Shown here piece after piece: positions 1 to 15,286 of a stretch of DNA of 15,286 nt. The notes under the pieces are model-generated. The model saw only the letters and a list, made by a program, of their open reading frames with translations, was not told the origin of the DNA and searched no databases. Each line of letters opens with the position of its first letter. Within the stretch, counting starts at the first letter, position 1. Origin of the DNA: a virus (Duplodnaviria; Heunggongvirae; Uroviricota; Caudoviricetes); the IMG/VR virus record IMGVR_UViG_2711768167_000011, positions 1-15,286 of that record; one strand, 5' to 3'. The position numbers were made by a program, and so were the translations under genes.

Positions 1-141
1 CATTACGTGGGTAGGATCAATTTTCCTGATGACCCCATCGACATAGTATTTTTTCAAAGCAAGAATTGCCTTCTCGCTATGTATTCCTGATAGCTTGATC
101 AGGATATCAAAGTCTCTTTCAGATATATTCCCCTTTGTCAT
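1..141 (-). CDS. hypothetical protein, N-terminal fragment (gene continues past the left window edge)
   Basis: ATG at 141..139 with GGAG (rc of 148..151) 6 nt upstream; frame open for 47 codons to the window edge (MTKGNISERDFDILIKLSG...). Absent from the ORF track because truncated. Confidence 0.35.
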   Translation of the reverse strand, partial: MTKGNISERDFDILIKLSGIHSEKAILALKKYYVDGVIRKIDPTHVM

Positions 142-710: not shown

Positions 711-738
711 AAAAAAAGCCTCCACTATATGTGGAGGC
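711..738 (-). terminator. rho-independent terminator-like hairpin
   Basis: Perfect 8-bp stem GCCTCCAC (718..725) / GTGGAGGC (731..738), 5-nt loop, preceded on plus strand by A7 (711..717), i.e. a U7 tail on minus-strand RNA. Confidence 0.5.
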
Positions 739-1406
739 AAACCCTTAGATAGTTCTATTGAGGCAAGTATGTTATAAATCTGCCTTATCTTTTATAGCAT
801 ATAAAGATATGTATGCTATATTTTTTTTGAAGAAATTTTTCCAGAAATTACAGTAATACAAGAAATATTAACTGGTGTGATTTTTGGATGTTTAATAAGT
901 ACAGTGTACTTATATTTTTGTAATAAAGATGAACGCGTCCTTTAGATAAACTGAAAAATATTAAGCATGTCTCATGTGGTTTTCTGAATCAAAACTCTTT
1001 TCAGTCTTTGATTTTTTGTTAAAAACAGGTTTATTGCAAGGGTGTTGTTGTGAAATGTGTTTTGGTGTCGTTGTGATTTTATGGTGATAATGTGAATTTT
1101 TATCCTTTCAAGATGGCTCCCTGGACGTTAAATACAGTGGAAATTTATATTAAGATATAAATATAACTATTGCGTTATTTAAATTATTGTCTATTACAGC
1201 TCCAGTTAATAGAGCCTGAAGTAATTTCTTAGTATTTCATCATAAGCGTTTATCTATCGTCTCTTTCTAAATTAACCGGTCGTATTACAAGGTGCTGAAT
1301 CTGATTAAGGAATGATACTTAGGGGATTATGGCTGACTTAATAATTAGATAACTGATAAATGACTATCAGGGGGATATCGTTAAGTCAGCCTTTAAAATC
1401 AAGCGA

Positions 1407-2597
1407 TTATATAGCTGGTGACTCTTTTCGAAGAGCATCAAGGTAGTCAGCGTACCATTGCATCATTTCTCGTCTTCCTTCAAGGTAACGAGCATGGTTG
1501 TATGTACCACGAATGCTGTTTTTGTCCGTATGTGCAAGTTGCATTTCAATCCATGCACTATTGAATCCTTGCTCGTGTAGAACAGTACTCATTGTATGAC
1601 GAAATCCATGCCCGGTAGCTTTTTTGTCATAGCCAATCTTCTTCAAAACCATATTGACGCTTGCATCGCTGATAGGCCTGTTAACATCATTTCTTCCGGC
1701 AAAGATGTATCTGTATCTTCCAGTCAGTTCTTTGAGGATTTGCAGAGACTGGATTGCCTGATCTGACAGAGGGACGATATGCTCCTTCCTCATTTTCATC
1801 CGGGTCGGAGGAACTTCCCATATCTTTTGGGTAAAATCGATCTCACACCATTCCCCCATACGTAATTCTACTGTTCTCAGCCCTGTGAGCATCAACAATT
1901 TTGTAGCTTCACGGGTTACAATACTGCCGGTGTAGTTTTCGAGTTTGTATAAAAACTCTGGTAGTTCAGGAGGAAGCAGGAAAGGGTAATGTGTTCGCTT
2001 ATAGCTTTTCATTGCTATAACCAGATCAGAAGCTGGATTGTATCGTGCCCGACCTGTAACAATGGCATACCGAAACACTTCACCACATCGTTGGCGAACT
2101 TTATTAGCTAGCTCGCAGGCTCCTCGGCTTTCGATACGCTGAAGAACTGCGAGAAGTTCAAGAGGTTCGATTTCACTAATGGGTCTGTTTCCAATGTAGG
2201 GAAACACATTATTTTTGAATGCTCTGTCGACATAATCAGCGTAGCTGGCAGACCAGCCTGAAACTTTTGCGTTGTACCACTCGGTGGCGATTGCGGCAAA
2301 AGTTCTTCCTTCGGAAAGGTTTTTCTCAAGATTTTCAGCTTTCTTGACTTCACCGGGATCTTTACCATCGGCATGTATTTTCTTGGCTTCATCCCGACGT
2401 TTGCGAGCTTCAGCCAATGTAATAGTTGGATAGGTGCCAAATGATAGTTTCTTTTCCTTCCCCGCATAGTGGTACTTCATTCGCCAGTACTTTGAGCCGT
2501 TAGGATTGACCTGAAGGTAGAGCCCACCACCATCGGCAATCTTATAAATTTTATCTTTGGGTTTGGCTGTTTCAACTTGTCGAGCTGTCAGTGGCAT
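1407..2597 (-). CDS. P4-type tyrosine integrase (396 aa)
   Basis: ORF-track 405-aa ORF; preferred start is ATG at 2597 (MPLTARQVETAKPKDK...) with GAGG 7 nt upstream, since the track start at 2624 is TTG. P4-Int-like N-terminus (KP.DK...DGGGLYL.V.P.GSK.WR) and C-terminal catalytic signature GHGFRHT ... RGTYNHARY. Confidence 0.9.
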   Translation of the reverse strand: MPLTARQVETAKPKDKIYKIADGGGLYLQVNPNGSKYWRMKYHYAGKEKKLSFGTYPTITLAEARKRRDEAKKIHADGKDPGEVKKAENLEKNLSEGRTFAAIATEWYNAKVSGWSASYADYVDRAFKNNVFPYIGNRPISEIEPLELLAVLQRIESRGACELANKVRQRCGEVFRYAIVTGRARYNPASDLVIAMKSYKRTHYPFLLPPELPEFLYKLENYTGSIVTREATKLLMLTGLRTVELRMGEWCEIDFTQKIWEVPPTRMKMRKEHIVPLSDQAIQSLQILKELTGRYRYIFAGRNDVNRPISDASVNMVLKKIGYDKKATGHGFRHTMSTVLHEQGFNSAWIEMQLAHTDKNSIRGTYNHARYLEGRREMMQWYADYLDALRKESPAI

Positions 2598-2940
2598 CTG
2601 GGGGCCTCGCAATAGATTGACCAAGATGTGCCCCTAAATAGGCCCCCAAATGTGACTTGATTTACGTTCCCCTGAGGAGAATTAAGGCGACTATTTGAGT
2701 AACATAAGTAAGGGTATGTGCTGATTATAAAGGCTTTTTGTGGGGTATGGTAGATTTCAGGAGAGGTGTGCATGGTGTCCCTGCAGAAATCATCTTAATT
2801 ATTATTATGTTGATTTATATGTAGTTTATTTTTGATTTTTTGTTTTTGTACCCGTTTTGTGCCCGTTTTATTCGATTCCCAATTTAAACTTCGATTCTAG
2901 AAAGGTGAGTAGGGGAGGTTGTCATTTCATGTATCATTAT

Positions 2941-2984
2941 TGTAGACACAGAATAATTACTCGCCTATCCTCACTGTAGACACA
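2941..2984 (+). promoter_or_regulatory. direct repeats upstream of the toxin-antitoxin operon (putative operator)
   Basis: Perfect 10-bp direct repeat TGTAGACACA at 2941..2950 and 2975..2984, 25-60 bp upstream of the antitoxin start; AGGAG at 2996..3000. Confidence 0.3.
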
Positions 2985-3008
2985 CAATAGATACAGGAGT
3001 TAACCCAC

Positions 3009-3257
3009 ATGCGCACACAGGTTGTATTGCAAAAATGGGGTAATAGCATTGCCCTTCGACTAACGGGAAACCTTAAAACCGTTCCGGGGTTTTCAGTGGG
3101 TGATATCGTCAACGTTGAAATTAGTGAAAAGGGGCTTTTTGTAGAAAAGCCTGCACGCCGTCGCCTGAGTGAAGCCGAATTACTCGCCGGGATAACGCCA
3201 GTTACAGCGCACGCGGACGAAATTGCCACCCCATTCAATGAGGAGGTTGATTACTGA
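3009..3257 (+). CDS. MazE/PemI/ChpS-family antitoxin (AbrB/SpoVT-type fold), 82 aa
   Basis: N-terminal KWGNSIALRL motif and C-terminal LAELLAGITP...EEV, resembling MazE as recalled; stop overlaps next start (TGATG at 3255..3259). Confidence 0.85.
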   Translation: MRTQVVLQKWGNSIALRLTGNLKTVPGFSVGDIVNVEISEKGLFVEKPARRRLSEAELLAGITPVTAHADEIATPFNEEVDY

Positions 3258-3601
3258 TGTTTGTACCTAAGCGTGGTGATATTTGCTGGCTGGATTTTGA
3301 GCCGCAGAAAGGAAAAGAGAGCGGAAAGTATCGCCCGGCACTCATACTATCCCATGAGCAATATAACCGACTCACCGGGCTTGTCATATGCTGCCCCATA
3401 AGTACGAGCATACGAAATGCTCCCACAGAAGTTCCGGTAACAAATCTGGACGCCCCCAGCGTGGTAGCAACCACACTCATTCAAACCCTTGACTGGCGTC
3501 AGCGGAAAGCGCGCTTAATCACAGAGGCAGAAGATGGGGTATTTAATGATGTGCTTGAAAGAGTCATTACCCTGATTGGTGGAGAGCATCTGCTTAAGTA
3601 A
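3257..3601 (+). CDS. MazF/PemK-family toxin (endoribonuclease family), 114 aa
   Basis: GDICWLDFEP...GKYRPALILS...LVICCPISTS pattern typical of the PemK/MazF family; translationally coupled to the upstream antitoxin. Confidence 0.85.
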   Translation: MFVPKRGDICWLDFEPQKGKESGKYRPALILSHEQYNRLTGLVICCPISTSIRNAPTEVPVTNLDAPSVVATTLIQTLDWRQRKARLITEAEDGVFNDVLERVITLIGGEHLLK

Positions 3602-3604
3602 AAG

Positions 3605-3622
3605 GAGGGCTGAGAAGCCCTC
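3605..3622. other. intergenic hairpin between convergent genes (weak terminator candidate)
   Basis: 7-bp stem GAGGGCT (3605..3611) / AGCCCTC (3616..3622), 4-nt loop; lies between the toxin stop (3601) and the stop of the convergent 423-aa gene (3645). No clean U-tract on either strand. Confidence 0.25.
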
Positions 3623-3644
3623 AACGTTACCAGAAATTTCCTTG

Positions 3645-4916
3645 CTATTCTTTCCAGTCAATCCCATCCAGTAAGCACCCTGCCTCATATTGCCCAACAA
3701 CCCAGTCAAGATTGCAGGACTCATAGAAAGCGAGGCGATTATACTGTGGCTCGTTTTTTACCAGACCACGAACGGAGCCGCGTTGCCAGTACAGGCACAG
3801 ATTGGCAAGAGGTGTGATCAGCACAGCATTGTCCGGGAAAAATGGAACGGTCACAGCCGGAAGATTCCCCAGCACGGGCTTTTTAATGATTTCCTCGTTA
3901 AGCAAAATTTCCTGATTCATCTGCGATGGATCAAGACGGTTTATCAAAGGCCATTGTTTACGGACCAGAGTATTGTGACTGCATACGGCCACAATGCCTT
4001 CCTGCCACTGTTCATCAATCATGGATTGCCAGGCATCCAGAACAAGTGCATCTATTGTATGGTGTGTACCGCGTGTATTGCTTGTCGGCGATGAAACAGA
4101 AAGACCGCTGATAACCCTTCCCGCTGCTTCGTTTCGAAACTTCTGCAACCATCCGACGCCGCAATCGTCACGGCCCGGATATGTTTCAGGATCAGATTGA
4201 TCGGCATAGTGTGTGCCGTTAAAACCAATCTGAATTAAATCCAGCCATTTCCGGCGTTCAAAAGCGGCACGGGCGCTTCCTTCAAGACCATTTGCGGACG
4301 CGTGAGCATCGACATTGTCGTAGCTCAACGCAAAATCAAAATTAACCTGCTCGCAGCGGTAGCCTCTTGAAACCAGTGAATGCGCCTGTAGTGGCGAACG
4401 GCGCTCGTGAGGTGGCGATGTACGTGCCAACGGCCCCGAAGCGTCTACCAGCACAACCTGACCTGATATATCCGTAACAGGCACGGGGGTTATTTCAGCA
4501 AGGAAATTTGCCTGCCATCCACTGGCAAGCGTTGCACTCTGGCGGGGAACGGGTTCAACTTCTGACGAATAGCGCGCAGTATCACCGGAAAAGTGCAAAT
4601 CCTTCGGATGTTTTCCGGTTATCGACTCGATAGCGCAATTGAAAACCATCTGAGACTGTTGATTTCGTTGTGATACAACATAATCAGCAGTGCAATTATA
4701 ACACTCAATGCCGTCGTTATTACCCCCACCGCTTGCAGTATGCAGGGTGTGAAGCTCAAGCTCACGCTCCAGTTTTTGATATTCATTGTCCAGCGCGCGA
4801 CGCGTCTCATCGCTTATGCTTGCTGTGTTTGCTTTCAGGCGATTCCGGGACATTAACTCCCTGAGTCGGCTCACTATATCAGCGCCGTGCAAATGTGAAA
4901 TATTCAGACCGCCCAT
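3645..4916 (-). CDS. hypothetical protein B (423 aa), downstream gene of the two-gene operon
   Basis: ATG at 4916..4914 overlaps the upstream gene stop (TAATG); corresponds to Met48 of the 470-aa ORF-track entry. Long uninterrupted frame; no Walker A, HNH or PP-loop consensus seen by eye. Confidence 0.7.
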   Translation of the reverse strand: MGGLNISHLHGADIVSRLRELMSRNRLKANTASISDETRRALDNEYQKLERELELHTLHTASGGGNNDGIECYNCTADYVVSQRNQQSQMVFNCAIESITGKHPKDLHFSGDTARYSSEVEPVPRQSATLASGWQANFLAEITPVPVTDISGQVVLVDASGPLARTSPPHERRSPLQAHSLVSRGYRCEQVNFDFALSYDNVDAHASANGLEGSARAAFERRKWLDLIQIGFNGTHYADQSDPETYPGRDDCGVGWLQKFRNEAAGRVISGLSVSSPTSNTRGTHHTIDALVLDAWQSMIDEQWQEGIVAVCSHNTLVRKQWPLINRLDPSQMNQEILLNEEIIKKPVLGNLPAVTVPFFPDNAVLITPLANLCLYWQRGSVRGLVKNEPQYNRLAFYESCNLDWVVGQYEAGCLLDGIDWKE

Positions 4917-5626
4917 TACTGCCACCCCCGGCAGAGTTCTCTGCCCTCCGCAAGGTCGCGCATTTTTTCTGGATTCTGTCGCGCCGCGCTCCATTGTACA
5001 GGTGAAGGGGCGTTCCTGATTGCGTGGCTTACCGAATCCGGCAGTTTCTCCGGGCAATAACGAAGCGGATTGGAGGCATCGCTCTCAATATCGTTAATCC
5101 GGCCGCGAATCAGCCTGACACTTTCAACAATATCTGCCACTTTCAGTGTTTCACATATTTTCTTTTCTGCGTTATACAGCGGCTGGCCAAGCAGCTCACA
5201 TAAACCACGAATCAATAACAGAGCAGGGATCAGCTCGTTAATCAGTCCGGGAAGTGCTTTTGCAAATATCTCTGCCCGCAACTTATTATCAATGCTTTCG
5301 TAAGCACAGCCAGCCTCTGCCGCGTTATAACGACACTCCAGTAACATGATGCGCGCCTCATCATGCAATACCCGCAGACGCTCAAGATTTTCTCGCGCCA
5401 CACCCGCCTGAATGGATAATTTTGCGGAGGCTTCCGTTTTTGCGCCCAGCGCAGACAGGATTGAGTTCTGCCAGTCACGATCGAGAGACTCCAGCTCCCC
5501 TTTCGTCTGTTCGATAGTCGCTTCCAGATTGGTGATTAATGATTCCTGTTCGCTGAGTTTTGCGCTGGCCGTATCAAACTGTGCTTTACATGCCTGATGC
5601 TTGGCGCTTGCCTGAGTTATATCCAT
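4916..5626 (-). CDS. hypothetical protein A (236 aa), predicted helical/coiled-coil N-terminal half
   Basis: ATG at 5626..5624 with AGGAG 6 nt upstream (rc of 5633..5637); heptad-like charged/hydrophobic N-terminus (LSEQESLITNLEATIEQTKGELESLDRDW); stop TAA at 4918..4916 overlaps the start of gene B. Confidence 0.7.
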   Translation of the reverse strand: MDITQASAKHQACKAQFDTASAKLSEQESLITNLEATIEQTKGELESLDRDWQNSILSALGAKTEASAKLSIQAGVARENLERLRVLHDEARIMLLECRYNAAEAGCAYESIDNKLRAEIFAKALPGLINELIPALLLIRGLCELLGQPLYNAEKKICETLKVADIVESVRLIRGRINDIESDASNPLRYCPEKLPDSVSHAIRNAPSPVQWSAARQNPEKMRDLAEGRELCRGWQ

Positions 5627-5676
5627 TGTTTGCTCCTGTAATACATTTTTTACTTACGCGGATTTTTTCCATATTG

Positions 5677-5735
5677 CGTAATACATTCCAGCCGATTTTG
5701 TTCTCGTAATACGCTCACAATACTGTTGTATTACG
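5677..5735. promoter_or_regulatory. divergent promoter/operator region with GTATTACG-family repeats
   Basis: CGTAATAC at 5677..5684 and 5705..5712, GTATTACG at 5728..5735; the last two form a perfect 8-bp inverted repeat with a 15-bp spacer. Sits between the start of gene A (5626, minus) and the small plus-strand gene (5791). Confidence 0.4.
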
Positions 5736-5790
5736 CTTTCTTATATCGCGGGTGTTAAATCCAGGCATAAGCAATCAGGGAGGCAACACG

Positions 5791-6024
5791 ATGAAAAAAC
5801 AAAAGAAAATGCGATACGTATTACGCTGTATTCGTATCCCGCACGAAATCGACCATAAAATAAATCAGATATGTGAGGACAGAGAGATGAACTACTCCCA
5901 GTGCGTCAGAATGTTTATCAGTCAGGGAATTAAGGCCGGGGAAACGCAGGAAGAAGACCGCAACGGGCGCAATGTAGCGGGGGATGTGTGGGCCTGGGCA
6001 AATGACCAGAACTACACGACGTAA
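5791..6024 (+). CDS. small DNA-binding-like protein (77 aa), possible ribbon-helix-helix regulator
   Basis: ATG at 5791 with GGGAGG (5777..5782) upstream; the ORF-track start at 5752 is GTG without an SD. Predicted beta-strand then helices (MRYVLRCIRIPHEIDHKINQICEDRE...), judged by eye only. Confidence 0.5.
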   Translation: MKKQKKMRYVLRCIRIPHEIDHKINQICEDREMNYSQCVRMFISQGIKAGETQEEDRNGRNVAGDVWAWANDQNYTT

Positions 6025-6074
6025 TACAGAAATAACGTAGCCGGTTACACTCGCTGGCTGTGTTATACAAATCA

Positions 6075-6257
6075 CTATGAAGTTTTCAACTTCCTGCGCT
6101 TAGTGATGCGTACAAACGACTCAAGCGTACAAAAACAAGCCCCACACTCAATATTATTGCACTGGTAATACGTTTTGTAGATGTTTTGTTCGTGTTCTTC
6201 CAACGAACGACTACGGGTTCGGGTTGAAGCGCCACAGGCCGGGCAAGGGAAAGACAT
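6075..6257 (-). CDS. Ogr/Delta-family zinc-finger transcriptional activator (60 aa)
   Basis: Four-Cys pattern CPACG...(22 aa)...CNNIECGACF with the conserved YYQCNN-type core of P2 Ogr / P4 Delta as recalled; ATG at 6257 with AGGAG 8 nt upstream. Confidence 0.7.
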   Translation of the reverse strand: MSFPCPACGASTRTRSRSLEEHEQNIYKTYYQCNNIECGACFCTLESFVRITKRRKLKTS

Positions 6258-6618
6258 ATCACGCTCCTCTTACTGGTGTGAAATTTGACCTATTATATCT
6301 TCTGCCGCCCCCTCTGGCTGTATCAAATAAACCCGCAGCAGTCGCCGCGTATTACGCACGGACGCACCGTTCCCATGCTCACTCGTCACATTCCCCGTAT
6401 CAGTTCTCTCTTACCGTAAGAACGGCTCTGGCTGGCGATAAAACTAACCCGGTCGGGCATTCCCGCAGTCTTTAGAGAAAATGTAATTTACCCCCTGAAA
6501 CGCGGGCTGTTCCCCCGTCACCTGCGCGCGAAAAACTCACCGTTTTTTGTGCACGCACGAAATCGCCCTCCGGGTGCGCCAGTACTGGGCTGGATGGGCA
6601 AAAAGTTACTCTAAAAAA

Positions 6619-6645
6619 TTGTGCAAATTTGTGCACTTTTGTGCA
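6619..6645. promoter_or_regulatory. three phased TTGTGCA direct repeats (putative operator or activator site)
   Basis: TTGTGCA at 6619, 6629 and 6639, exactly 10 bp apart; a fourth copy at 6547..6553. Confidence 0.3.
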
Positions 6646-6871
6646 GATGAACAATAGCGTGAAAAAGAGTGCTTTTGAGAGATTTTTTATGGCAACTGCG
6701 CCGCGTGTATTACGTTTTTTACCATCCCCGCCGCGCATGTACATACTTCATTTTTCTGCCAGACAACAGGGCAACTCCCCGTGACTGACAGCCCCAAAAA
6801 ATCAATGATTGATGTTGCATTTTTGTTAAAGGTTAGACCAGTTGTTTTAGGGCTCTGCCTCATAATCCGGT

Positions 6872-7185
6872 GGGGGGTGCGCAAAGCGGTTACAACGGTT
6901 ACAACACTCAAAAACACCACTTAACAGCATGATTTTAATGGATATTGTTTGTAACCGCTTTGCGGTTACACTGCGGTTACAACGGTTACAGGTTTCAAAA
7001 AGCACTTTATTATCAATCAATTAAAAACTTAACCTGTAACCGCCTGTAACCTAACAAAACGGTTACATGTAACCGCGTTGTAACCGCTTTTGTAACTCAT
7101 CGGACCAGTTATAATATATTGATATATAATACAAAAATAAGTAATTTTAAATTTGTAACCGTTGTAACCGCTTTGCGCACCCCCC
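6872..7185. repeat. iteron array (14 copies of GGTTACA/TGTAACC) bounded by 33-bp perfect inverted repeats; candidate replication origin or recombination substrate
   Basis: IR-left 6872..6904 is the exact reverse complement of IR-right 7153..7185, extendable to 36 bp with one mismatch. GGTTACA at 6888, 6897, 6964, 6975, 6984, 7061; TGTAACC at 6950, 7035, 7045, 7068, 7079, 7154, 7163. Internal palindromes GTAACCGCTTTGCGGTTAC (6951..6969) and GGTTACATGTAACC (7061..7074). Confidence 0.6.
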
Positions 7186-7380
7186 CCCAAACTTTAGCGC
7201 GACCCTTTAAAATGTTAATTAAACTCACTTACTCTGTATCTCTCTCGTTAACTTTCTGTTATTGAAATGTATCTCTCCACTGTTTGACTCTTTCTCATAA
7301 TCAGGGGAAGCAAAAAATTGATGGCGGCACTACTGCAATATGGCCACCATTGCATTGCTGTTACCGTTGGTTCTGGCCAA

Positions 7381-7412
7381 CAAAAAAGGTCAGCGGGAAA
7401 CTGACCTCTTTT
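7381..7412 (-). terminator. rho-independent terminator downstream of the primase-integrase operon
   Basis: 7-bp stem AGGTCAG (7387..7393) / CTGACCT (7401..7407), 7-nt loop, flanked by A6 (7382..7387) and TTTT (7409..7412), so bidirectional in form; about 25 nt past the integrase stop at 7437. Confidence 0.6.
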
Positions 7413-7436
7413 GCTGTGAATGCGGCGTTCTGCGGG

Positions 7437-8441
7437 TTACTCTGCTGGCTCTTTTTCTTCGGTGATCACTATGTTGGCTACCGGGTTAAATCTCATGGCA
7501 TCTGCCAGATAATCCGGTGCAAAATGTGCGTATGCCATAGTCTGCTGAATTGTCGCATGCCCAAGGATTTTTTGTAGCGCAAGAATGTTGCCACCGTTCA
7601 TCACAAAGTGACTGGCGAATGTATGCCGCAATACATGCGCAGCCTGCCCCCTCGGTAAATCGGGTTTTATTTTTTTTAATGCCCGGCAAAACTCTCTGTA
7701 CTTCACATCAAACAGTCGCCCGGTTTCTTTTGTTTTTACGGCATCGCATATTTCCTGCGACACAGGCACCGTTCTTTTTCTACCGTTTTTGGTTTCCAGA
7801 AACGTTATTCTGTTATGAACTATTTGCTCTCCATGCAATCTGCTGGCCTCACTCCAGCGGGCTCCGGTACAAAGACACAAGAGCGCAACCCTTCGTTGAT
7901 CTCCATTCAGCCCGTCAAGCAACAATGTGACCTCGTTTTTTGATAAAAAGGCCATTTCCCGCTGCTTTACATAAAGAACAGGAATACCACGAACCGGATG
8001 CTCTGCATCCCACAAACCGATCTTTTTCAGGGCTGTAAACATCCCCGATAATCTGTTCATGTATCTGTTTGCTGAGGACGGCTTTAATCCTTCCGCAATT
8101 TTCTGCGATCGCCATGCAATGATTTTTAATTTGTTGAGTTCTGCCGCAAACATGTCAGCTCCAAGCTCATTAATAATTTTGCCAAGTTGCTGTTTATCCG
8201 TGTTTGCCTTTCGCCTGTGCTGACCGTGATAGACCCACCACAATTCCAGTAAATCGCTAAGCGTTCTCCGGTCGCGATAGCCCTGTATAAACTCGCGCTT
8301 TTCGGCGTTCGCTATGATGTACCGTTCAGTTGCTGTAGCTATCGATTTTTTGTCAAATATTCTTCTGATGCGCTTCCCTTTACGTCCGCATGGCCTGATA
8401 TCGAGCAGCCACCGCCCATCATGCATCTTTCTGATCGGCAT
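7437..8441 (-). CDS. P2-type tyrosine integrase (334 aa)
   Basis: N-terminus MPIRKMHDGRWLLDIRPCGRKGKRIRRIFDKKS closely resembles recalled P2 Int (DGRYEVDIRPTGRNGKRIRRKFDKKS); catalytic HVLRHTFASH and C-terminal Tyr (QTMAYAHF). Start ATG at 8441 with AGGAGG upstream; the ORF-track start at 8477 lacks an SD. Confidence 0.85.
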   Translation of the reverse strand: MPIRKMHDGRWLLDIRPCGRKGKRIRRIFDKKSIATATERYIIANAEKREFIQGYRDRRTLSDLLELWWVYHGQHRRKANTDKQQLGKIINELGADMFAAELNKLKIIAWRSQKIAEGLKPSSANRYMNRLSGMFTALKKIGLWDAEHPVRGIPVLYVKQREMAFLSKNEVTLLLDGLNGDQRRVALLCLCTGARWSEASRLHGEQIVHNRITFLETKNGRKRTVPVSQEICDAVKTKETGRLFDVKYREFCRALKKIKPDLPRGQAAHVLRHTFASHFVMNGGNILALQKILGHATIQQTMAYAHFAPDYLADAMRFNPVANIVITEEKEPAE

Positions 8442-8443
8442 GT

Positions 8444-11113
8444 TTAACTCCCCTCCTTGTAACTGAATATCCGGCATTTCAGTACTTCCGGCTCTCTGGC
8501 CTCGGCGACCCCTCTTCCGGCGTTTGCCTGTCTGGAGACCTCACTACGAATGGTTTTGCGGCCTGTCAAAGGTCGGGAACGTCCGGCTGCGAGCAACTCA
8601 ATCATTTCGCGGTCAGTTCGGATCTCCACGCGGTGGATAGCGGCAGCCTGTGCCAGTTGCGGAATACTGATAGCAATCCCCTCGCGGCATCCCTTGCCGT
8701 AGTGGTTTACACCGTATTTTGTTATGCCGTCCAGATAGTCGAACGCCTCCCAGAACGCTATTACTTCCGGCAAGTCATCCGTTACCGCTTTAACTTGTTC
8801 CGCTGCCATTCGTTCCAGTTCCTGGCATGTGGCATTAAGCCATTCATCCGGGATATCAATAACGCATTTCAGCGCCCTGACCAGCGCAATAAGTTGCGCG
8901 TGATTTTTGGCAATACGGGGATGGAGAATATTTTCGCAACCGCAAAGGCGGGTCGTTTCAGGCTCTGAGAGCGCCAGAAACATTTCCATAATTGCCCGTT
9001 CACGGCTGACTGCCCGATGAATAAACCCTGACACCTTCTCAACGGGGTAGAGTTCCAGTCGTCTCGCCGCCAGCCGGGTATCAGACGAGTGGCGCTTTTT
9101 ATCGGTATATATGCGAATCAGTCGCTCAATAATTGCAAGTGAGGCGTTTACCCTGGCATTCTGTGCAATCACGATAGCGCCCTTAAAATCCGGGTCATAG
9201 GTGTTGTTATTGTTGGTCTTAACGCCACGAACGCCGATACCGCCGCCGTTATAGAGGCTTTTCAGGTTATCGAAGTCAAACGCACCTCTTTTTTGCGCAT
9301 TGCCTCCCCGGTCTGCTTCAATCAGAACAACAGGTAATCCGGCGACCTGTCCAAAGGTGCGCTTCCAGCCCGCCTCTGATCCTTTGGTTGGATCAACGCC
9401 TTCATAGTTGTCACGACCGCACAACCGCCAGCAAAAATCAATCAATGTTGATTTACCCGTTCCGGGCTCCCCGGTGACTTCAAGGAAGGGGAAGGATTCT
9501 TCTTTATCCCGGATTTGTTCGCTGAACAGGGAGCCCAACCAGAAAGCCAGGGTAATAATTCCTTTTTCACCAAAAGCCAGCCAGAGATCTTCCACCCAGG
9601 ACTCTGTAAACTCATCCGGTTTTTTGTAGTTAATCTGTAATGTGGGTTTTTCGCTTAATGGTTTTGCGTTTATGCCATCAATTTCAAAATAATCTTCGTC
9701 ATTGATTTCATAAGTTTTTCCCTTGTAAACAGCAATATCATTAAACAGCCATGCCCCAATCGCCTTGTTGTATCCGATAAAATCCTGACCAATAACCTCT
9801 TTTATTGCGGGAAGGTCATTTTTTATTAATGCGTCAAGGTGCGCAGTTGTTCCGGTATAAATGCCGCCTTTTGCCACATGCAACAGGCGTTTTTTAAATT
9901 CAGATGCGGATGTCAATTGTCCTGATGTAAAGGTGTTTTTCACCGTAGCACCATCCGGGAACGTAACACGGAAGTAATACCATGCTTCATCCGTGTCATT
10001 ATTTCGAATGTAATAAAGCGGCGCTGGGTTACAGTTTGCGATTTCTTTTACTGCGCCAGATTCCTTAAGTGCAATTTTGCGCGCTTCATCCTCATCAACA
10101 CTTCTCTCATTCTTGGCACGCTCTACAGCTTTCATATAGCGCTCAATGTCCAGTTTGAACCAGAAAACACGGTTATCAAAAGTAAAATGAAATTCCTTCC
10201 GCTCACGAAAGGAAAATATTATTAGCGCCTTATCTCTCGGAGATTTCGCCAGCAATAAATCACCGTAATGACGGTATCTTTTCACATCATGGCCACGCAG
10301 CTTTCCGGCGATGTGTAAATCATTCCAGTCGCGTTTATTGTTGTTTTTACCTGGCAACGCCGCTGCCGTTCTCCAGCCGTCTTCGGCGCTGCGTTCTGCA
10401 TGTTTTTTCGCGTAACGCTCACCCGCACGCCCGTTATCCAGCGCCCACACAATAACCGGACGGGGATTATCCCCGCACAGCTTCGCCAGCTCTTCCAGCG
10501 CCTTATCAGGGTAGTTCACGGCAGACATGACAGAAACGGCCGCAATGCCATTCTGGTTAAGGCTGATGGCATCAAAGATGCCCTCACAAATCCAGATTTC
10601 TTTGGCCTTGCTTAAATCTGCTCCCGGATAAGCCCACCACAACCCCTTGTAGCTGCCGGAAAAATTCGCCTTGCGCGCGAAGCGTCCCGGTCTGTCTATG
10701 ATGCGCTCCCACCACACGCCGTCAGCCAGCGTAAAACGCACAGTAGCGGCCTGTTCGCCGTTTTCCTTGTCCTGGTATCGCTCCTGAGTAAATGCGCCCT
10801 TCAGTGGCCCCACAGCAATATTGCGCGCCTCCTGAAGATAAGCTGCCACCGCTGCATATGGCTCGTCTTTCGTGCTGATATAACGATCTGACCATGATGA
10901 AAACACATCCGGGTAAAGTTCTTTGGTCAGCAGGTCTGTACCGCATTTATTTTCGCGCCCACAGTGTACGATGTACGGCCTTTCAAGGCTGGTAAACAAC
11001 TCTTTCTTTCCACATTGCGGACAAACACCATACCGGAGGTAGTTATTTTCTTCTTTGAAGTTGTAATCACGGATAAGACGGTTAATAATCTCTTTTCTGA
11101 TGTCAGATTTCAT
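8444..11113 (-). CDS. bifunctional primase-helicase (P4 alpha-like / PICI pri-rep-like), 889 aa
   Basis: N-terminal zinc-binding CPQCGKK...HCGRENKCG, Toprim-like ICEGIFDAISL, P-loop GEPGTGKST and Walker-B-like VVLIEAD. ATG at 11113 with GGAG 8 nt upstream preferred over the GTG at 11137. Confidence 0.85.
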   Translation of the reverse strand: MKSDIRKEIINRLIRDYNFKEENNYLRYGVCPQCGKKELFTSLERPYIVHCGRENKCGTDLLTKELYPDVFSSWSDRYISTKDEPYAAVAAYLQEARNIAVGPLKGAFTQERYQDKENGEQAATVRFTLADGVWWERIIDRPGRFARKANFSGSYKGLWWAYPGADLSKAKEIWICEGIFDAISLNQNGIAAVSVMSAVNYPDKALEELAKLCGDNPRPVIVWALDNGRAGERYAKKHAERSAEDGWRTAAALPGKNNNKRDWNDLHIAGKLRGHDVKRYRHYGDLLLAKSPRDKALIIFSFRERKEFHFTFDNRVFWFKLDIERYMKAVERAKNERSVDEDEARKIALKESGAVKEIANCNPAPLYYIRNNDTDEAWYYFRVTFPDGATVKNTFTSGQLTSASEFKKRLLHVAKGGIYTGTTAHLDALIKNDLPAIKEVIGQDFIGYNKAIGAWLFNDIAVYKGKTYEINDEDYFEIDGINAKPLSEKPTLQINYKKPDEFTESWVEDLWLAFGEKGIITLAFWLGSLFSEQIRDKEESFPFLEVTGEPGTGKSTLIDFCWRLCGRDNYEGVDPTKGSEAGWKRTFGQVAGLPVVLIEADRGGNAQKRGAFDFDNLKSLYNGGGIGVRGVKTNNNNTYDPDFKGAIVIAQNARVNASLAIIERLIRIYTDKKRHSSDTRLAARRLELYPVEKVSGFIHRAVSRERAIMEMFLALSEPETTRLCGCENILHPRIAKNHAQLIALVRALKCVIDIPDEWLNATCQELERMAAEQVKAVTDDLPEVIAFWEAFDYLDGITKYGVNHYGKGCREGIAISIPQLAQAAAIHRVEIRTDREMIELLAAGRSRPLTGRKTIRSEVSRQANAGRGVAEAREPEVLKCRIFSYKEGS

Positions 11114-11161
11114 ATATAAAACTCCACCCCACTGCACCTTTTGCCGTGGGGTTTTTATTAA

Positions 11162-11461
11162 TTACTCGTTACTTATTGCTTTGGCAATCCCGGCGGTTTC
11201 AGCACTATGCCATGAAAAAATTCCGCCAGAAGTATGCATTCCTGACTTAATCACTCGTAATTCCCGATAAAGAATGTTAGTTAATGATTCCATTTCATTA
11301 ATTTGCACTGGCATTCTCTCACTGGTATTAATTTCACCTGTCAATGCTGAAAGGAGCGCAATAACATTTATTACATCTTCAAGATTCTCAATGGAATCTT
11401 CCGTGAAAAAACCAGCGTATTCTTTTTTGTATATATTGCGGATATTCTGATTTTTAGACAT
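11162..11461 (-). CDS. hypothetical protein (99 aa)
   Basis: ATG at 11461 with GGGGAG 5 nt upstream; sits immediately upstream of the primase on the same strand. Confidence 0.5.
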   Translation of the reverse strand: MSKNQNIRNIYKKEYAGFFTEDSIENLEDVINVIALLSALTGEINTSERMPVQINEMESLTNILYRELRVIKSGMHTSGGIFSWHSAETAGIAKAISNE

Positions 11462-11528
11462 AAAAACTCCCCGACCCGTTAAGATCGAAATATAAATTTA
11501 ATTCAGTTATCAGTTGGTAATTCGGTAA

Positions 11529-11747
11529 TCAGTCGGAAAGCTGCGTCACCTTCAACGCTTTGAAATGTGTCATTCCCAGCTCTTCCAGCCCTTCGGCTGC
11601 GCGGCGTATGGCTTCGCCCGGTCCTGTTCCGTATACCGTTGCATGTGCATGTTTGGTTAACCCACGTTTATTAACGGCATAACCCAACACAAAGAAACGT
11701 TTTTCACCACTGCCATTATTTTTACGGGATATTGAACGGCTTTTCAT
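11529..11747 (-). CDS. hypothetical small protein (72 aa)
   Basis: ATG at 11747 overlaps the upstream stop (ATGA), indicating translational coupling. Confidence 0.45.
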   Translation of the reverse strand: MKSRSISRKNNGSGEKRFFVLGYAVNKRGLTKHAHATVYGTGPGEAIRRAAEGLEELGMTHFKALKVTQLSD

Positions 11748-11932
11748 TTCTTCACCTTTACCACTGATGCTGTGAGTTCTTCTTCTGGCAATTGATATTT
11801 CGGCGCAATTTCTTCCGTATACCTGATAGCGTCCCTTGCCGCTTTTCCTTTTGATTTATATTTACGTATCGTGTGGAAGTTTTCTTCCTCTCCTGTTACC
11901 ACATTACGCAATTTAATATGAATCTCGTACAT
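11744..11932 (-). CDS. hypothetical small protein (62 aa)
   Basis: ATG at 11932 (Met11 of the ORF-track entry, MYEIHIKL...) with GGAGG 7 nt upstream; 2 nt after the upstream stop. Confidence 0.45.
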   Translation of the reverse strand: MYEIHIKLRNVVTGEEENFHTIRKYKSKGKAARDAIRYTEEIAPKYQLPEEELTASVVKVKK

Positions 11933-11934
11933 CG

Positions 11935-12117
11935 TTACCCCTCCATGATTTTTACTGCGCATTTGTGGGTTAATCGCCCCTGTTTGTCATTGCGGGAATA
12001 TGCCATACGACAGGCATCAAGCCATACATCGTCATAAGTCGGATATTCCCGGGAATGAATCATCTGGCGAACGTCGCCGTTCTGGTAGTTAATCAGGGTG
12101 ATAAGGAGCTTAAACAT
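11935..12117 (-). CDS. hypothetical small protein (60 aa)
   Basis: ATG at 12117 (Met27 of the ORF-track entry, MFKLLITLINY...) with GGGAGG 6 nt upstream; overlaps the 3' end of the Icd-like gene by 8 nt. Confidence 0.4.
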   Translation of the reverse strand: MFKLLITLINYQNGDVRQMIHSREYPTYDDVWLDACRMAYSRNDKQGRLTHKCAVKIMEG

Positions 12118-12283
12118 GGCACGCCTCCCGGACACGGATACGGGCAACAAAGACCAGACGAGATGCCGGAAGCAGGGCGCGCGCTTCGCGCTCACTGGCA
12201 GCGGTAACGGTATGAAGGCGGATATTTTTACCGTGGCACTGCATAAAGCGCCAGATAAAATCAGGGCGTGTTGATATAGCCAT
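12110..12283 (-). CDS. Icd-like cell-division-inhibitor family small protein (57 aa)
   Basis: C-terminal 57 aa of the 175-aa ORF-track entry, starting at ATG 12283 with AAGGAG 8 nt upstream; FIWRF...SEREARALL...LVFVARI pattern resembles Icd-like proteins of P4-like elements as I recall them. Confidence 0.5.
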   Translation of the reverse strand: MAISTRPDFIWRFMQCHGKNIRLHTVTAASEREARALLPASRLVFVARIRVREACHV

Positions 12284-12699
12284 TTTGGCGGCTCCTTCTA
12301 CTGATTTACGGAGTCTCGCCAGCACGCTGCTAAACATGGTGGCGGGACGTAACAGGGTTAGCAGACTGGCGTAGAAGAAACCAGCGAGCGCAAAGGCTCC
12401 CCCATTACGCCCCGCCATAATACGGGGTAGGGTGGAATTACGGGCACAAAAAAACCGCATTACGGAAATATAGCGGCTACCCGCTTCTACTATCAGGCTG
12501 CTAAACCCGGCACCCGCTTTATGAGGTGCGGGCAAACGATACGCCATGACAAAAAAGCGAGTCAAGCAATATTGCAAATTATTTTTGGGCGATTGCGCTG
12601 AGTGATTGATTTTTAAGAGTAAAAAAGTCATAATCATTTCTGGCTATTGTTTCTTATTGTTGATTTCAGGTGCACTAAATGCACATCCTTGACTGGTTG

Positions 12700-12729
12700 G
12701 CTCGCTGGCTTTAGCGAGCTTCTTTTTTG
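12700..12729 (+). terminator. plus-strand intrinsic-terminator-like hairpin with no plus-strand CDS upstream
   Basis: 7-bp stem GCTCGCT (12700..12706) / AGCGAGC (12713..12719), 6-nt loop, followed by TTCTTTTTTG (12720..12729). Confidence 0.3.
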
Positions 12730-13190
12730 CTCTGCTGTCAGTGATCGGCCTCCTTCCCTCATATGTAGTCATGTGCTCATTCCAGTCAGGTGGATAATGC
12801 TGTATTACCGGACATCCGGTTATGATGTTTAAAGCGTTTGTTTGTTTATGCCACGTGGAGAATATACCCCCACCGCCATTACTTGTATTTATCATAACAG
12901 TTCACCCAATTCGGTTAATGTAACCGGAATAACTCAATTTCATACACTGTAAATAAATGCTGATTTTAAACTTAGCTCCTTGGAATATATTTCTTACGTG
13001 TGACGCACAGGTGAAAATATCCCTCTGATAGTCCATTTTCTTTTATTTTGTCACATCTGTTTACTCCGGTTCCCTTAACAAGGGTAGAGCATCTTTTAAA
13101 CCATGAATGCATCTTCGGTTAAGTGATGTTTCTTATTGTATGAAATATTTAGGCGCATATCGCGCCATGCTGACTATAAAATGAAAATAA

Positions 13191-13412
13191 TTAAGCCTGA
13201 AAACGTTGTTGTTTTCTTTCTTCTATCCAGTCGATAATTTCCTCTTCAACCCATGCAACCGCGCGAGGGCCTATTTTTATTGGTTTGGGGAATATATCAG
13301 ATTTTATATCTTCGTAAATTCGAGCTCTTGATCTCCCTGTGATTTCAATGACTCTGGGGAGTCTTATTAATTTTTGAATCCGCCTTTCGCTGGTCTGTGA
13401 GTATGCTGACAT
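13191..13412 (-). CDS. alpA: AlpA-family (excisionase-like) phage transcriptional regulator (73 aa)
   Basis: LIRLPRVIEITGRSRARIYEDIK...FPKPIKIGPRAVAWVEEEI matches the AlpA/Xis-like helix-turn-helix pattern; ATG at 13412 with AGGAGG 5 nt upstream. Confidence 0.85.
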   Translation of the reverse strand: MSAYSQTSERRIQKLIRLPRVIEITGRSRARIYEDIKSDIFPKPIKIGPRAVAWVEEEIIDWIEERKQQRFQA

Positions 13413-13942
13413 ATTGGCCTCCTGTATATGCTGACATTTTACGTTAGCTCACAGCGGGAGCATGTAAGATCTCGCGGTCGTCTGCGGGACGAGAAAAATC
13501 ATAAACAACGAAAAGCGGATTTGTAAATCAGGTCGATTTTCAGGCGGGGTTGACAGGGACAGTGAGATTTGTTCCATGTGTGCAATATACATTTTAGGAC
13601 CACTTTAAGCCACTTTAAACCGCCAGAAAGCGACAAAGAATAACAAGTTAGTGCCAGAAAGGTTTGCTGACTTACCCTTTTAGGTACCAGAAAAAGCCCT
13701 TTCAGGTCGGTGTAATGCTTGTGAACGCTGAAATAGTGGTTTCTGAAAACAAAAAAAGAATTGAAAATGCGATACATATCACAAAATAATATCGATAAAA
13801 TAGTTTGATTTTTTTTGTTTTTATTAAAAGCACTGGTTAATTGTAAAAAATTAATTATAAATCAAATGGATATATCTGTTTTTTTAGGGTAAAAATCACT
13901 AGGTGCTTTTAGCAGTATCTTATTCTATTGATTTTAAAAGAT

Positions 13943-13976
13943 AAAAAAATCGGCGTGTCCACATATTGTCCACGCC
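13943..13976 (-). terminator. rho-independent terminator candidate downstream of the right-hand integrase
   Basis: Stem GGCGTG (13952..13957) / CACGCC (13971..13976), preceded on plus strand by A7 (13943..13949), i.e. a U7 tail on the minus strand; about 50 nt past the integrase stop at 14024. Confidence 0.45.
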
Positions 13977-14023
13977 TTGAGTTTAATTCAGCCGCTTGGG
14001 ATAGTTTAGTTTGTTGAGTTGAT

Positions 14024-15286
14024 TCAGTCTGTTTCGTTAGTCCATTTAAAATCATAGGGGGAAATATATGCCGTCTTGCAGGTGTCGAGATAATCAGCCC
14101 ACCATTGCAACATTCGGCGGCGTTCCTGCATATGTTCAGCTCTGTGAACGTATGCAGCCCGGACACTGCCTCTTTCCCTGTGACTCATCTGAAGCTCAAC
14201 GGCTTCTCTTGTCCACCTGCCTGACTCTGTCAGCGCCGAACAGGCCATGGTCCTGAATCCGTGACCACAAATATCTTTTTTTGTGTCGTATCCCATGTGG
14301 CGTAATGCCTTGTTAATGGTGTTTTCGCTCATTGGTTTTATCTGGTAATGGTCGCTGGGGAAAATAAACACTTCATCACCGGATATATTTCTTATATCGT
14401 CAAGAAGCTGCATGGCCTGAGTGGGTAAAGGGATGGCGTGAGGGGTTCCCATTTTCGTTCCACGATATGAATATTTTACGCCTTCTATTTTTTCGCGTTC
14501 TGCTGGTATTACCCACATTGATTTATCAAAGTCAATTTCATTCCAACGAGCAAAACGCAATTCACTTGAGCGAATAAAAATTAATAAATTTAATTTTAGT
14601 GCAAATTGCGTTAATAACCGTCCATTCATCTTATGGTGGTAATCATTTATTTTGCCAAGTAATTCAGGTAATCGCTCAAGGGGAAGAGCGGGGCGATGTT
14701 TGGTTTTATTAGTTTCGATTGCACCGTTCAGTTCCTGCGCTGGATTGTATTTAATCATTCCATTCTGTACAGCGTAGCGCATAATGGCGTTCATTCGCTG
14801 CTTGTTACGTGATGCTGTCTCAAGCACTCCTTTGTCTTCCATTTTGCGTAAAGGAATCAGTAGATCCATGGTTGTGATCTCGTTAATTGGCCTTTTACCA
14901 AGAATGGGGAAGATGTGGTTTTCCAGGTCTTTTAAGACTTTTTGCGCGTGTAATTCGCTCCACCCCTTTTTCCGGCTGTGCCATTCTCTGGCAACGTCTT
15001 CAAAAAGCACTATTTGAGGTTTTGGTGTGTGCAGTGGGTCAATGCCTTTAGCCAGGCTCGCCAGATATTCATCACGAGCGTTCCTTGCCTGTGCAAGTGT
15101 TACGGCAGGATAAATGCCTAAAGCTCGGGTCGTTTCTTTACCGTTGATAACCTTGCGAAAGCGCCAGTATTTTGAGCCGTTGGGGTGAACATAGAGATAC
15201 AGGCCTTTCCCGTCACGAAGTTTTTTAATTTTATTGTTGTCCTTATCTGGTTTGGCGTTACGTACAGCTATATCAGTCAGTTTCAT
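14024..15286 (-). CDS. P4-type tyrosine integrase (420 aa)
   Basis: N-terminus MKLTDIAVRNAKPDKD...GKGLYLYVHPNGSKYWRF typical of P4-family integrases; catalytic GHGFRTMA and C-terminal RAAYVHRAEH; the start codon is the last 3 nt of the window, so RBS and upstream att lie outside. Confidence 0.9.
   Translation of the reverse strand: MKLTDIAVRNAKPDKDNNKIKKLRDGKGLYLYVHPNGSKYWRFRKVINGKETTRALGIYPAVTLAQARNARDEYLASLAKGIDPLHTPKPQIVLFEDVAREWHSRKKGWSELHAQKVLKDLENHIFPILGKRPINEITTMDLLIPLRKMEDKGVLETASRNKQRMNAIMRYAVQNGMIKYNPAQELNGAIETNKTKHRPALPLERLPELLGKINDYHHKMNGRLLTQFALKLNLLIFIRSSELRFARWNEIDFDKSMWVIPAEREKIEGVKYSYRGTKMGTPHAIPLPTQAMQLLDDIRNISGDEVFIFPSDHYQIKPMSENTINKALRHMGYDTKKDICGHGFRTMACSALTESGRWTREAVELQMSHRERGSVRAAYVHRAEHMQERRRMLQWWADYLDTCKTAYISPYDFKWTNETD

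Follow-up and report, generated by a model that had tools for sequence, protein, structure and literature searches.

The stretch of DNA analyzed here, referred to as the window, is 15,286 nt long and corresponds to positions 1 to 15,286 of the IMG/VR virus record IMGVR_UViG_2711768167_000011 (Caudoviricetes). It carries a chain of five small open reading frames (ORFs) at positions 11162..12283. An initial annotation had described five chained ORFs of 57 to 99 amino acids (aa) at this span, and we recovered all of them, each on the minus strand: ORF1 (12283..12110, 57 aa), ORF2 (12117..11935, 60 aa), ORF3 (11932..11744, 62 aa), ORF4 (11747..11529, 72 aa) and ORF5 (11461..11162, 99 aa). Coding sequence (CDS) accounts for 1053 of the 1122 nt of the chain. 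The downstream gene of this operon encodes a primase. According to our analysis, the five ORFs are probably the promoter-proximal genes of an immunity-gated early ('left') operon in a satellite of the P4 type.

The junctions between the ORFs read as the initial annotation had given them, with overlaps and short gaps. ORF1 and ORF2 overlap by 8 nt (common sequence ATGTTTAA), ORF2 and ORF3 are separated by 2 nt (TAA-CG-ATG), and ORF3 and ORF4 share the 4-nt overlap ATGA. A gap of 67 nt separates ORF4 from ORF5, and a gap of 48 nt lies between ORF5 and the ATG of the primase gene (11113). The annotation had also assigned a Shine-Dalgarno (SD) sequence to each ORF, and one is indeed present 5-8 nt upstream of all five starts (AAGGAG, GGGAGG, GGAGGGG, AAGGTG and GGGGAG for ORF1 to ORF5). 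An alternative start of ORF3, which would yield a product of 72 aa, lacks an SD and is not kept in Yersinia. A hairpin at 11490..11469 was considered as a terminator between ORF4 and ORF5 and rejected, as it has only three G-C pairs and contains the SD of ORF5. A further stem-loop on the minus strand (11127..11151; CCCCAC, a 13-nt loop and GTGGGG) is located between the stop of ORF5 and the SD of the primase gene and may act as a modulator of primase translation or as an attenuator.

The chain region (1.6 kb) was found at ≥80% coverage and ~88-99.6% identity in 58 of 5426 complete E. coli genomes, and it is chromosomal in every genome that carries it. In the sister islands examined, the NCBI pipeline calls the same five CDS, except for island L004 with four, where ORF2 and ORF3 are fused. 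The fusion in this island (E. coli CFSAN027346, positions 945..1319) is due to a 1-nt indel that turns both ORFs into a single CDS of 124 aa. We retrieved 63 loci encoding relatives of the primase and profile-searched them for homologues of ORF2 to ORF5. Islands of Yersinia, Klebsiella indica, Enterobacter hormaechei and an Escherichia sp. contain homologues of both ORF3 and ORF4. ORF2-type copies are present in the Klebsiella, Enterobacter and Escherichia sp. islands and absent from the Yersinia island, and the ORF2 protein homologues of Klebsiella and Enterobacter were recovered with hidden Markov model (HMM) E-values of 8e-23 and 6e-22. Proteins of the ORF5 type are encoded by the Yersinia, Klebsiella and Escherichia sp. 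islands. For Klebsiella and Enterobacter, the DNA over the chain genes can no longer be aligned to the window, and the similarity is at the protein level. A lack of conservation in related islands, which the initial annotation had named as evidence against the ORFs, is therefore not what we observed, with homologues in Yersinia, Klebsiella and Enterobacter islands. The picture of a uniform chain of five genes holds for most sister islands and has to be qualified for some: Yersinia is without ORF2, ORF5 is swapped in Enterobacter, and ORF1 is longer in the NCBI annotation.

Two RNA genes are located directly upstream of the chain on the minus strand, and these had been missed by the initial annotation, correct as it was on the overlaps. 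One is an isrK-like leader RNA at 12448..12529 (Rfam RF01394, 50.6 bits vs. a gathering score of 50). The other is a C4/CI-type antisense immunity RNA at 12335..12422 (Rfam RF01695, 73.3 bits vs. a gathering score of 45, E-value 5e-13), the match to which spans positions 1-87 of the 87 positions of the model. Relatives of P4 seqA and CI are picked up by these two Rfam models (PMC10111431). The tandem of isrK and C4 was also found ahead of the Icd-like ORF in P4 and in four sister loci of Yersinia, Klebsiella, Enterobacter and an Escherichia sp. (isrK at 52-61 bits), in the same order as in P4. Just 5' of the start of the isrK-like RNA at 12529, a consensus scan picked up a sigma-70-like pattern on the minus strand (TTGACT-18-TATCGT, 12536..12565, 9/12 matches), which we regard, by this pattern match only, as a candidate early promoter comparable to PLE of P4.

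Two segments of the C4 RNA, CUUCUAC in a hairpin loop (RNA positions 46-52) and CUGCUAA (59-65), are unpaired in the minimum free energy fold, and each has perfect 7-nt complements on both sides of the RNA gene, within exact runs of 7-10 nt. The upstream target boxes lie within the isrK region (TTAGCAG at 12504..12498 and GTAGAAG at 12490..12484). The downstream boxes form a bipartite C4 target at 12292..12333 on the minus strand (TTAGCAG at 12333..12327 and GTAGAAG at 12301..12295), with the latter box overlapping the SD of ORF1 (AAGGAG, 12297..12292). The evidence for pairing consists of such exact complementary runs, and it is joined by co-variation of loop and target, for which we compared the window with islands L001-L010, L012, L014 and L078-L092, with P4, and with the islands of Klebsiella (L015) and Enterobacter (L016). 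Among the otherwise near-identical islands of this family, at least eight specificity types were found, including the loop/target pairs CTTCTGC/GCAGAAG, CTTTGTC/GACAAAG, CTCTAAC/GTTAGAG, CCTTGATT/AATCAAGG, CTTTGGT/ACCAAAG, CTCTTAC/GTAAGAG and CCCAATT/AATTGGG. The corresponding pairs are CCTGTGAA/TTCACAGG in P4, CCGATAAC/GTTATCGG in the Klebsiella island and CCTGTAAC/GTTACAGG in the Enterobacter island. The second C4 box likewise co-varies with its targets. Two types of this second box occur in the near-identical islands, where they are seen in several combinations with the loop.

The co-variation of loop and target is the strongest result of our analysis. It indicates that the C4 RNA pairs with the ribosome-binding site of ORF1, that regulation acts on the start codon at 12283 (ATG), and that this family of islands has diversified into many immunity specificities. 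Judged from these sequence patterns, an RNA gate at ORF1 is very likely. Since the upstream RNAs would pair at the ribosome-binding site of ORF1, the overlaps within the chain are probably also functionally meaningful.

ORF1, as the initial annotation had recognized, is the only Icd-like member of the chain. It matches NCBIfam NF033153 with 52.7 bits (cut-off 25, E-value 3.1e-14), and the P4 'cI137' ORF, which occupies the same position in P4, matches this family at 7.8e-21. The ORF1 protein of the Yersinia island is near-identical to that of the window. By sequence, ORF1 is assigned to the Icd/Kil-type proteins and represents a short, Kil-like form. A longer in-frame ORF of 175 aa (12110..12637, minus strand) spans both the isrK and C4 genes and ends together with ORF1. 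The NF033153 match corresponds to residues 127-169 of this long form and thus falls within the 57 aa of ORF1, while PHROG 'repressor' families align to residues 29-174 of the long form. All six elements compared (window, L012, L014, L015, L016 and P4) keep this long frame open. It may form a nested pair of the eta/kil type, by analogy with P4, or may be a spurious annotation that stems from conservation of the RNA region. NCBI/RefSeq calls ORF1 as an 'Icd-like' CDS of 173 aa that crosses both RNA genes, which is an issue for the RefSeq annotation.

ORF2 to ORF5, in turn, have no relatives in Pfam, PHROG, NCBIfam or PADLOC, also when scanned together with their own relatives, and their profiles did not match any PDB sequence. 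BLASTP comparison with P4 epsilon, orf151, cnr, the 'cI137' ORF, ORF88 and alpha gave nothing significant. ORF4 and ORF5 are orphan families.

ORF5 (GC content 36%) encodes an acidic, predicted helical protein with the conserved motifs GFFTE, DVIN, YREL and KSGMHxSGGIFSW around a variable middle, of which the first three and the SGGIFSW part of the last are invariant. The family comprises 46 clusters from E. coli and Salmonella at 59-97% identity, and a tblastn search of 50,697 phage records with ORF5 gave no match. No other gene of the chain varies nearly as much among the E. coli copies as ORF5 does. In island L003 (E. coli ETEC1716), the body of ORF5 is without nucleotide similarity to the window and the protein is ~30% identical, in surroundings with a nucleotide identity of 95.8% (ORF1 to ORF4) and 90% (primase). 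In island L002, ORF5 shows ~62% amino-acid identity to the window next to a primase gene with ~90% nucleotide identity. The ratio of nonsynonymous to synonymous polymorphism (pN/pS) of ORF5 is 0.70 in the middle third vs. 0.29-0.47 in most flanking segments, and 0.83 in the first 14 codons. The allele types of ORF5 combine freely with the C4 loop types, and immunity type and ORF5 allele reassort without being tied to each other. ORF5 is a hypervariable, swappable cassette directly upstream of the primase gene.

The replacement of this cassette can be followed across genera. In the Enterobacter hormaechei island (L016), the homologues of ORF2, ORF3 and ORF4 are followed, in the slot of ORF5, by a gene for an 85-aa homologue of epsilon, which shares 45% identity with P4 epsilon (E-value 2e-18) and matches the Pfam 'Derepression protein family' PF25738 at 1.4e-19. 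Epsilon homologues were found in the same slot in L016, L018, L021, L026 and L029, and islands of Y. pekkanenii, Pectobacterium and Samsonia have epsilon there. In other lineages, the occupants of the slot include transcription factors, namely zinc fingers of the TraR/DksA and Ogr/Delta types. ORF5 itself has the position of epsilon, in an early operon under a CI/C4-type RNA and upstream of the primase gene. Based on this position, on the cassette-like variability and on the independence from both the primase and the immunity type of the island, we tentatively posit that ORF5 might be a functional stand-in for epsilon, which would inactivate the repressor of a P2-like helper. The initial annotation had proposed roles in host takeover, derepression or anti-defence for small genes of this kind. 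For the chain studied here, such roles stay at the level of inference, with one concrete support, which is positional: ORF5 lies in what is the epsilon slot of a sister island.

A number of results weigh against this assignment. Homology is not part of it: ORF5 as a diverged epsilon was dropped as a candidate, with a probability of 0.4% in the hhalign comparison of ORF5 with epsilon and ~0 bits for ORF5 against epsilon HMMs, apart from a 5-bit local match of the Klebsiella variant, and only the shared slot was retained. ORF5 and 18 of its relatives likewise gave no match to Pfam at E-values up to 10, and hence none to PF25738. Sharing a slot is in itself weak functional evidence, since the slot holds a gene with a ParE-like toxin domain in Cedecea and unrelated genes elsewhere. 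ORF2 to ORF4 are combined with epsilon in one island only (L016), and in P4 it is cnr, not epsilon, that directly precedes the primase gene. The AlphaFold2 (AF2) model of ORF5 is poor, with a predicted local distance difference test (pLDDT) score of 52. In the literature searched, the RefSeq protein accessions of the chain are not mentioned, and no expression or functional data were found.

The main rival to the reading of ORF5 as a derepressor takes its cue from Cnr. In P4, this protein of ~100 aa is encoded directly 5' of alpha and limits the copy number via the primase. ORF5, and perhaps the basic ORF4, could accordingly assist in regulating the neighboring primase or origin. With its 99 aa, ORF5 is found in the position of P4 cnr/ORF106 (106 aa), immediately before the primase gene, an ORF of ~85-112 aa ending 10-80 nt 5' of this gene recurs in many islands with the same primase family, and the isoelectric point (pI) of ORF4 (10.3) together with its basic tail is compatible with nucleic-acid binding. 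However, ORF5 has no similarity to Cnr/DUF5375, neither by Pfam nor by BLASTP, while P4 ORF106 itself matches DUF5375 at 2.9e-63, and the recurring ORFs before the primase gene in other lineages belong to unrelated families. The divergence of ORF5 is also uncoupled from that of the primase (~62% and ~30% amino-acid identity in L002 and L003 with ~90% nucleotide identity of the primase gene in both), and the Enterobacter island, with epsilon in the slot and no ORF5, implies that this primase family does not require ORF5. We therefore regard a Cnr-like role as unlikely.

With regard to the middle of the chain, ORF2 and ORF3 are tandem paralogues by profile comparison. The ORF3 and ORF2 profiles aligned in hhalign with a probability of 86.6% (E-value 4.5e-6) over columns 1-41, in register from residue 1, the two proteins can be aligned jointly without gaps, and their profiles cross-match. 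The number of ORF2/ORF3-type copies differs among genera: Yersinia has a single copy, Escherichia and Enterobacter have two each, and Klebsiella has three. In the Klebsiella island, the 8-nt '...HV*/M[YF]K' junction is present three times in succession. Both families are small: ORF2 yielded eight clusters, all from E. coli, in a word-indexed protein search, and ORF3 seven representatives among 1.84e9 proteins. The AF2 model of ORF3 on the joint alignment (pLDDT 88.6) predicts strands at residues 2-10 and 16-20, a helix at 28-46 and a further strand at 51-59. According to this model, ORF2 and ORF3 are small beta-beta-alpha-beta proteins with a generic fold. Foldseek searches with the ORF3 model yielded nothing significant in the PDB, and many uncharacterized phage proteins of ~60 aa with borderline E-values in BFVD.

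ORF4 is a basic protein (pI 10.3) with an N-terminal basic tail and the conserved core RFxVxGYAVxxKGxT...FKALKV. Its family comprises 15 clusters, including one from Yersinia enterocolitica at 68% identity, and the homologues in Klebsiella and Enterobacter were found with E-values of 3e-12 to 5e-16. ORF4 always comes next after ORF3. The number of His-Ala repeats at codons 33-36 (11640..11651, minus strand) varies between HAHA, HAHAHA and HAHAHAHA, by in-frame steps of the 6-nt unit CATGCA. ORF4 was also considered as a third paralogue of ORF2 and ORF3. Profile comparison gave no support, the likeness to a beta-beta-alpha-beta arrangement being a by-eye impression only, and this candidate was rejected.

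We posit that ORF2 to ORF4 may be small binding or inhibitor proteins aimed at targets of the helper or the host. A more specific version, in which ORF2 and ORF3, together with ORF4, are small anti-defence inhibitors (anti-restriction, anti-CRISPR-like or other) that protect the satellite or its helper on entry, appears even less likely than the Cnr-like role of ORF5. The fold of ORF3 is generic. In comparison with its model, the anti-CRISPR protein AcrIC8 gave a Foldseek E-value of 0.43 and 15% sequence identity, and PurS and a topoisomerase subdomain score equally well or better. No PADLOC or Pfam link was found for ORF2 to ORF4, and among the E. coli copies they evolve more slowly than ORF5, which is not the pattern expected of inhibitors in an arms race. 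The overlapping ORF3 and ORF4 could also be taken for a stabilization pair similar to toxin-antitoxin (TA) systems, given their 4-nt ATGA overlap, their sizes of 62 and 72 aa, and their adjacency in all five genera/loci. This is very improbable. Both proteins are basic and neither matches any TA family, the island already possesses MazF/PemK (and its relatives Hok), and a TA pair that is kept silent by the immunity RNA in the resident state would not stabilize the island.

All five ORFs are very probably protein-coding. This was assessed by comparing pN/pS among eleven copies in the annotated frame with the other two frames. The values were 0.16 in the annotated frame vs. 2.16 and 2.11 for ORF1, 0.40 vs. 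1.16 and 0.70 for ORF3, 0.29 vs. 1.25 and 1.00 for ORF4, and 0.32 vs. 1.30 and 0.84 for ORF5, and these four ORFs are thus under frame-specific purifying selection. Indels in the alleles of ORF4 and ORF5 stay in frame. ORF2, with only nine variable sites among close copies, distributed 3/3/3 by codon position, and a pN/pS of 0.70, is the least certain of the five as a coding gene. That some or all of the ORFs are noncoding stretches of a long structured leader, open by accident, is scarcely credible: ORF2, which alone is without codon-position bias among close E. coli copies, is absent in Yersinia and has merged with ORF3 through a 1-nt indel in a single strain, would fit this explanation, but the selection on the other four ORFs, the in-frame indels, the SD at every start and the maintenance of four families at the protein level across genera whose DNA is no longer alignable all argue against it.

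Taken as an immunity-gated early operon, the chain may work as follows. Transcription would start near the promoter-like site at 12565..12536, and the isrK/seqA-like leader and then the C4/CI-type RNA would be made first. The unpaired segments of the C4 RNA would bind the bipartite boxes on both sides, of which the downstream one covers the SD of ORF1. In the resident immune state, this pairing would block translation of the Icd-like ORF1, and ORF2, ORF3 and ORF4 would be silenced with it via the loss of translational coupling. We expect them to be silent when ORF1 is blocked because 8-nt, 2-nt and 4-nt junctions join them to ORF1. The untranslated leader would then lead to transcription termination as in P4, and polarity would keep ORF5 and the primase gene switched off too. 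Once the RNA block is overcome, the entire chain would be produced together with the primase. ORF1 would thus be the gate, and ORF5 the best candidate for a helper-directed function of the epsilon kind. We infer both that coupling and termination are at work here and, beyond the family assignment of ORF1, what the proteins do.

Not all observations are favorable to this working model. The isrK match is barely above its gathering threshold, the promoter is a match to a consensus and nothing more, and ORF5 is not translationally coupled to ORF4 because of the 67-nt gap between them. An extended version of the model is doubtful as a whole: ORF5 would constitute a new, fast-evolving family of helper derepressors that replaces epsilon non-homologously in one lineage of satellites parasitic on P2, ORF2 and ORF3 (and perhaps ORF4) would be an expandable family of small inhibitors directed against the helper or the host, and all of them would be released by a single RNA-gated coupling chain with many heteroimmune types.

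The comparison with P4 was based on the left operon order ORF88/Vis - seqA - CI RNA - kil/eta - epsilon - orf151 - cnr - alpha. Besides its pairing in the leader, CI of P4 also pairs with the downstream site seqC at the ribosome-binding site of kil/eta. The window resembles P4 in its gene order: the AlpA-like gene comes first, followed by a leader of the isrK type and an RNA of the C4 type, then by an Icd-like ORF that also has a long nested form, and finally by small genes ahead of the primase gene. In both elements the gene after the Icd-like ORF overlaps it by 8 nt, and the ribosome-binding site of the Icd-like ORF is in each case the place of a bipartite, co-varying complementarity between RNA and target. 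In P4, pairing of the CI RNA with the seqA site leads to early transcription termination, which is prevented by translation of eta, and the eta and kil genes are nested (PMC10111431). The window differs from P4 in that ORF2 to ORF5 are without sequence similarity to epsilon, orf151 and cnr, its primase is of another family, a P2-type capsid homologue is present, and sid and psu were not found.

A second known system with this layout is the immI c4-icd-ant operon of P1 and P7, reportedly described by Citron and Schuster in 1990 and by Riedel et al. in 1993. In P1, the C4 antisense RNA blocks translation of icd, and the antirepressor gene ant needs icd translation via overlapping frames. RNA family (RF01695), Icd family (NF033153) and coupling geometry are the same in the window, whereas the large Ant antirepressor is replaced by four orphan small genes and a primase gene, and P1 and P7 are phages while the element in the window is a satellite. 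The isrK-orf45-anrP region of Gifsy-1 offers a third comparison. There, the anti-repressor gene anrP is linked by AUGA to the short orf45 that precedes it and is translated only if orf45 is (PMC4825925), and the window likewise combines an isrK-family leader with AUGA or 8-nt overlaps. In contrast to the window, IsrK of Gifsy-1 activates in trans and no C4 RNA is described there (PMC4825925), and the proteins are unrelated to those of the window. Lastly, the 'Bro zone' of Gram-negative phage-inducible chromosomal islands (PICIs) is a variable region between Int/AlpA and the replication genes that is rich in genes of the anti-repressor type, and it sometimes contains C4 and isrK immunity RNAs and Icd-like ORFs, as does the window (PMC10111431). 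However, Pfam scans found no domain of the Bro network in ORF2 to ORF5, and the late module of the window is P2-like (capsid homologue, Ogr/Delta), whereas the model PICIs have lambda-like helpers (PMC10111431).

The remainder of the window supports its description as a satellite. On the minus strand, the order from 5' to 3' is integrase, AlpA, an AT-rich spacer, the two RNA genes, the five small ORFs and the primase gene. The arm-type integrase gene (15286..14024, minus strand) is interrupted by the end of the window. The gene of the AlpA-family regulator or excisionase (13191..13412, minus strand; Pfam Phage_AlpA 5.5e-17) lies 5' of the operon, is a homologue of P4 ORF88 (BLASTP, 34% identity, E-value 1.4e-13), and is separated from the RNA genes by the spacer of 660 nt. 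The primase gene (8444..11113, minus strand) encodes a Toprim primase/helicase-like replication protein of 889 aa (phrog_1139 2.4e-297; Toprim_2 7e-13). Its similarity to P4 alpha by BLASTP is distant and marginal, confined to the toprim and P-loop motifs. Family scans placed a homologue of the P2-family major capsid protein, a coiled-coil ORF and an Ogr/Delta gene in the segments 3645..5626 and 6075..6257 on the minus strand. The capsid ORF (Pfam Phage_cap_P2 1.5e-73; phrog_70 6e-78) has an N-terminal extension, the coiled-coil ORF of 236 aa lies on its upstream side, and the zinc-finger gene matches Ogr_Delta at 3.4e-10. In the sister islands L002, L003 and L012, the capsid pair is located between AlpA and the RNA leader. 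The position of the capsid module thus differs among sister islands, which means that the module has moved.

Integrase, AlpA, primase, Ogr/Delta and the P2-family capsid homologue make up the gene set of a helper-dependent island, and we describe the element as a helper-dependent satellite of ~12 kb with P4-type architecture and a different set of proteins. The canonical core set of P4-like satellites consists of int, alpA, alpha, epsilon, delta, sid and psu (PMC8628076). The integrase, AlpA and a delta/Ogr-type activator are all present in the window. Sid, Psu and epsilon gave no match among the window ORFs scanned (Pfam for all, PHROGs for most), and the primase is not of the P4-alpha type. 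The island is therefore not a canonical P4-like element. The literature searched contained no account of a satellite type that has a P2 capsid homologue. The Enterobacter hormaechei island shares with the window the primase (52%), orf90, Ogr/Delta and the coiled-coil ORF.

Several further features of the window were noted. A second tyrosine recombinase gene (7437..8477, minus strand; Int_N and Phage_integrase, phrog_1) overlaps the stop of the primase gene by 34 nt and seems to be part of the replication operon. It was found in the islands of E. coli and Yersinia enterocolitica, not in the Klebsiella and Enterobacter loci examined, and may serve to resolve multimers. A further arm-type integrase gene (1407..2624, minus strand) lies past the end of the island, which points to a second, tandem island. 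In Yersinia, locus L012 has an additional integrase gene as well, starting at 15775. At the end of the island, a type II TA pair is encoded on the plus strand (3009..3601), consisting of an 82-aa ORF and a PemK/MazF toxin (1.1e-24), in place of which sister islands have Hok/Gef. The closest relative of the window is L001 from E. coli GF60 with 99.6% identity. In this island, an IS21-family insertion (5630..7937 of L001) separates the Ogr/Delta gene from a 90-aa ORF, and the window is without this insertion.

The chain has an ordinary architecture, that of the left operon of P4 and the immI operon of P1. Because P4-like satellites have already been recorded to contain small, functionally unassigned genes in the interval from epsilon to alpha (PMC8628076), a series of small early genes is to be expected as well. 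What is new are the three orphan families, the duplication series of ORF2 and ORF3, the exchange of ORF5 and epsilon in the same slot, and the co-varying immunity types.

Among the tiny early proteins by which satellites subvert their helpers, targets are, to our knowledge, known for P4 epsilon and a few others only. The locus described here supplies three uncharacterized protein families that are conserved in the satellites of four to five enterobacterial genera, and the logic of the switch that controls them can be read from the sequence. The at least eight loop/target types in near-identical islands represent a natural data set on the diversification of RNA-based immunity. ORF5 sits at the site expected of a derepressor and varies like a specificity determinant. 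If it is indeed a derepressor, this would mean that unrelated proteins can supply derepression, and ORF5 would provide a handle on the helpers that are exploited by this lineage of satellites.

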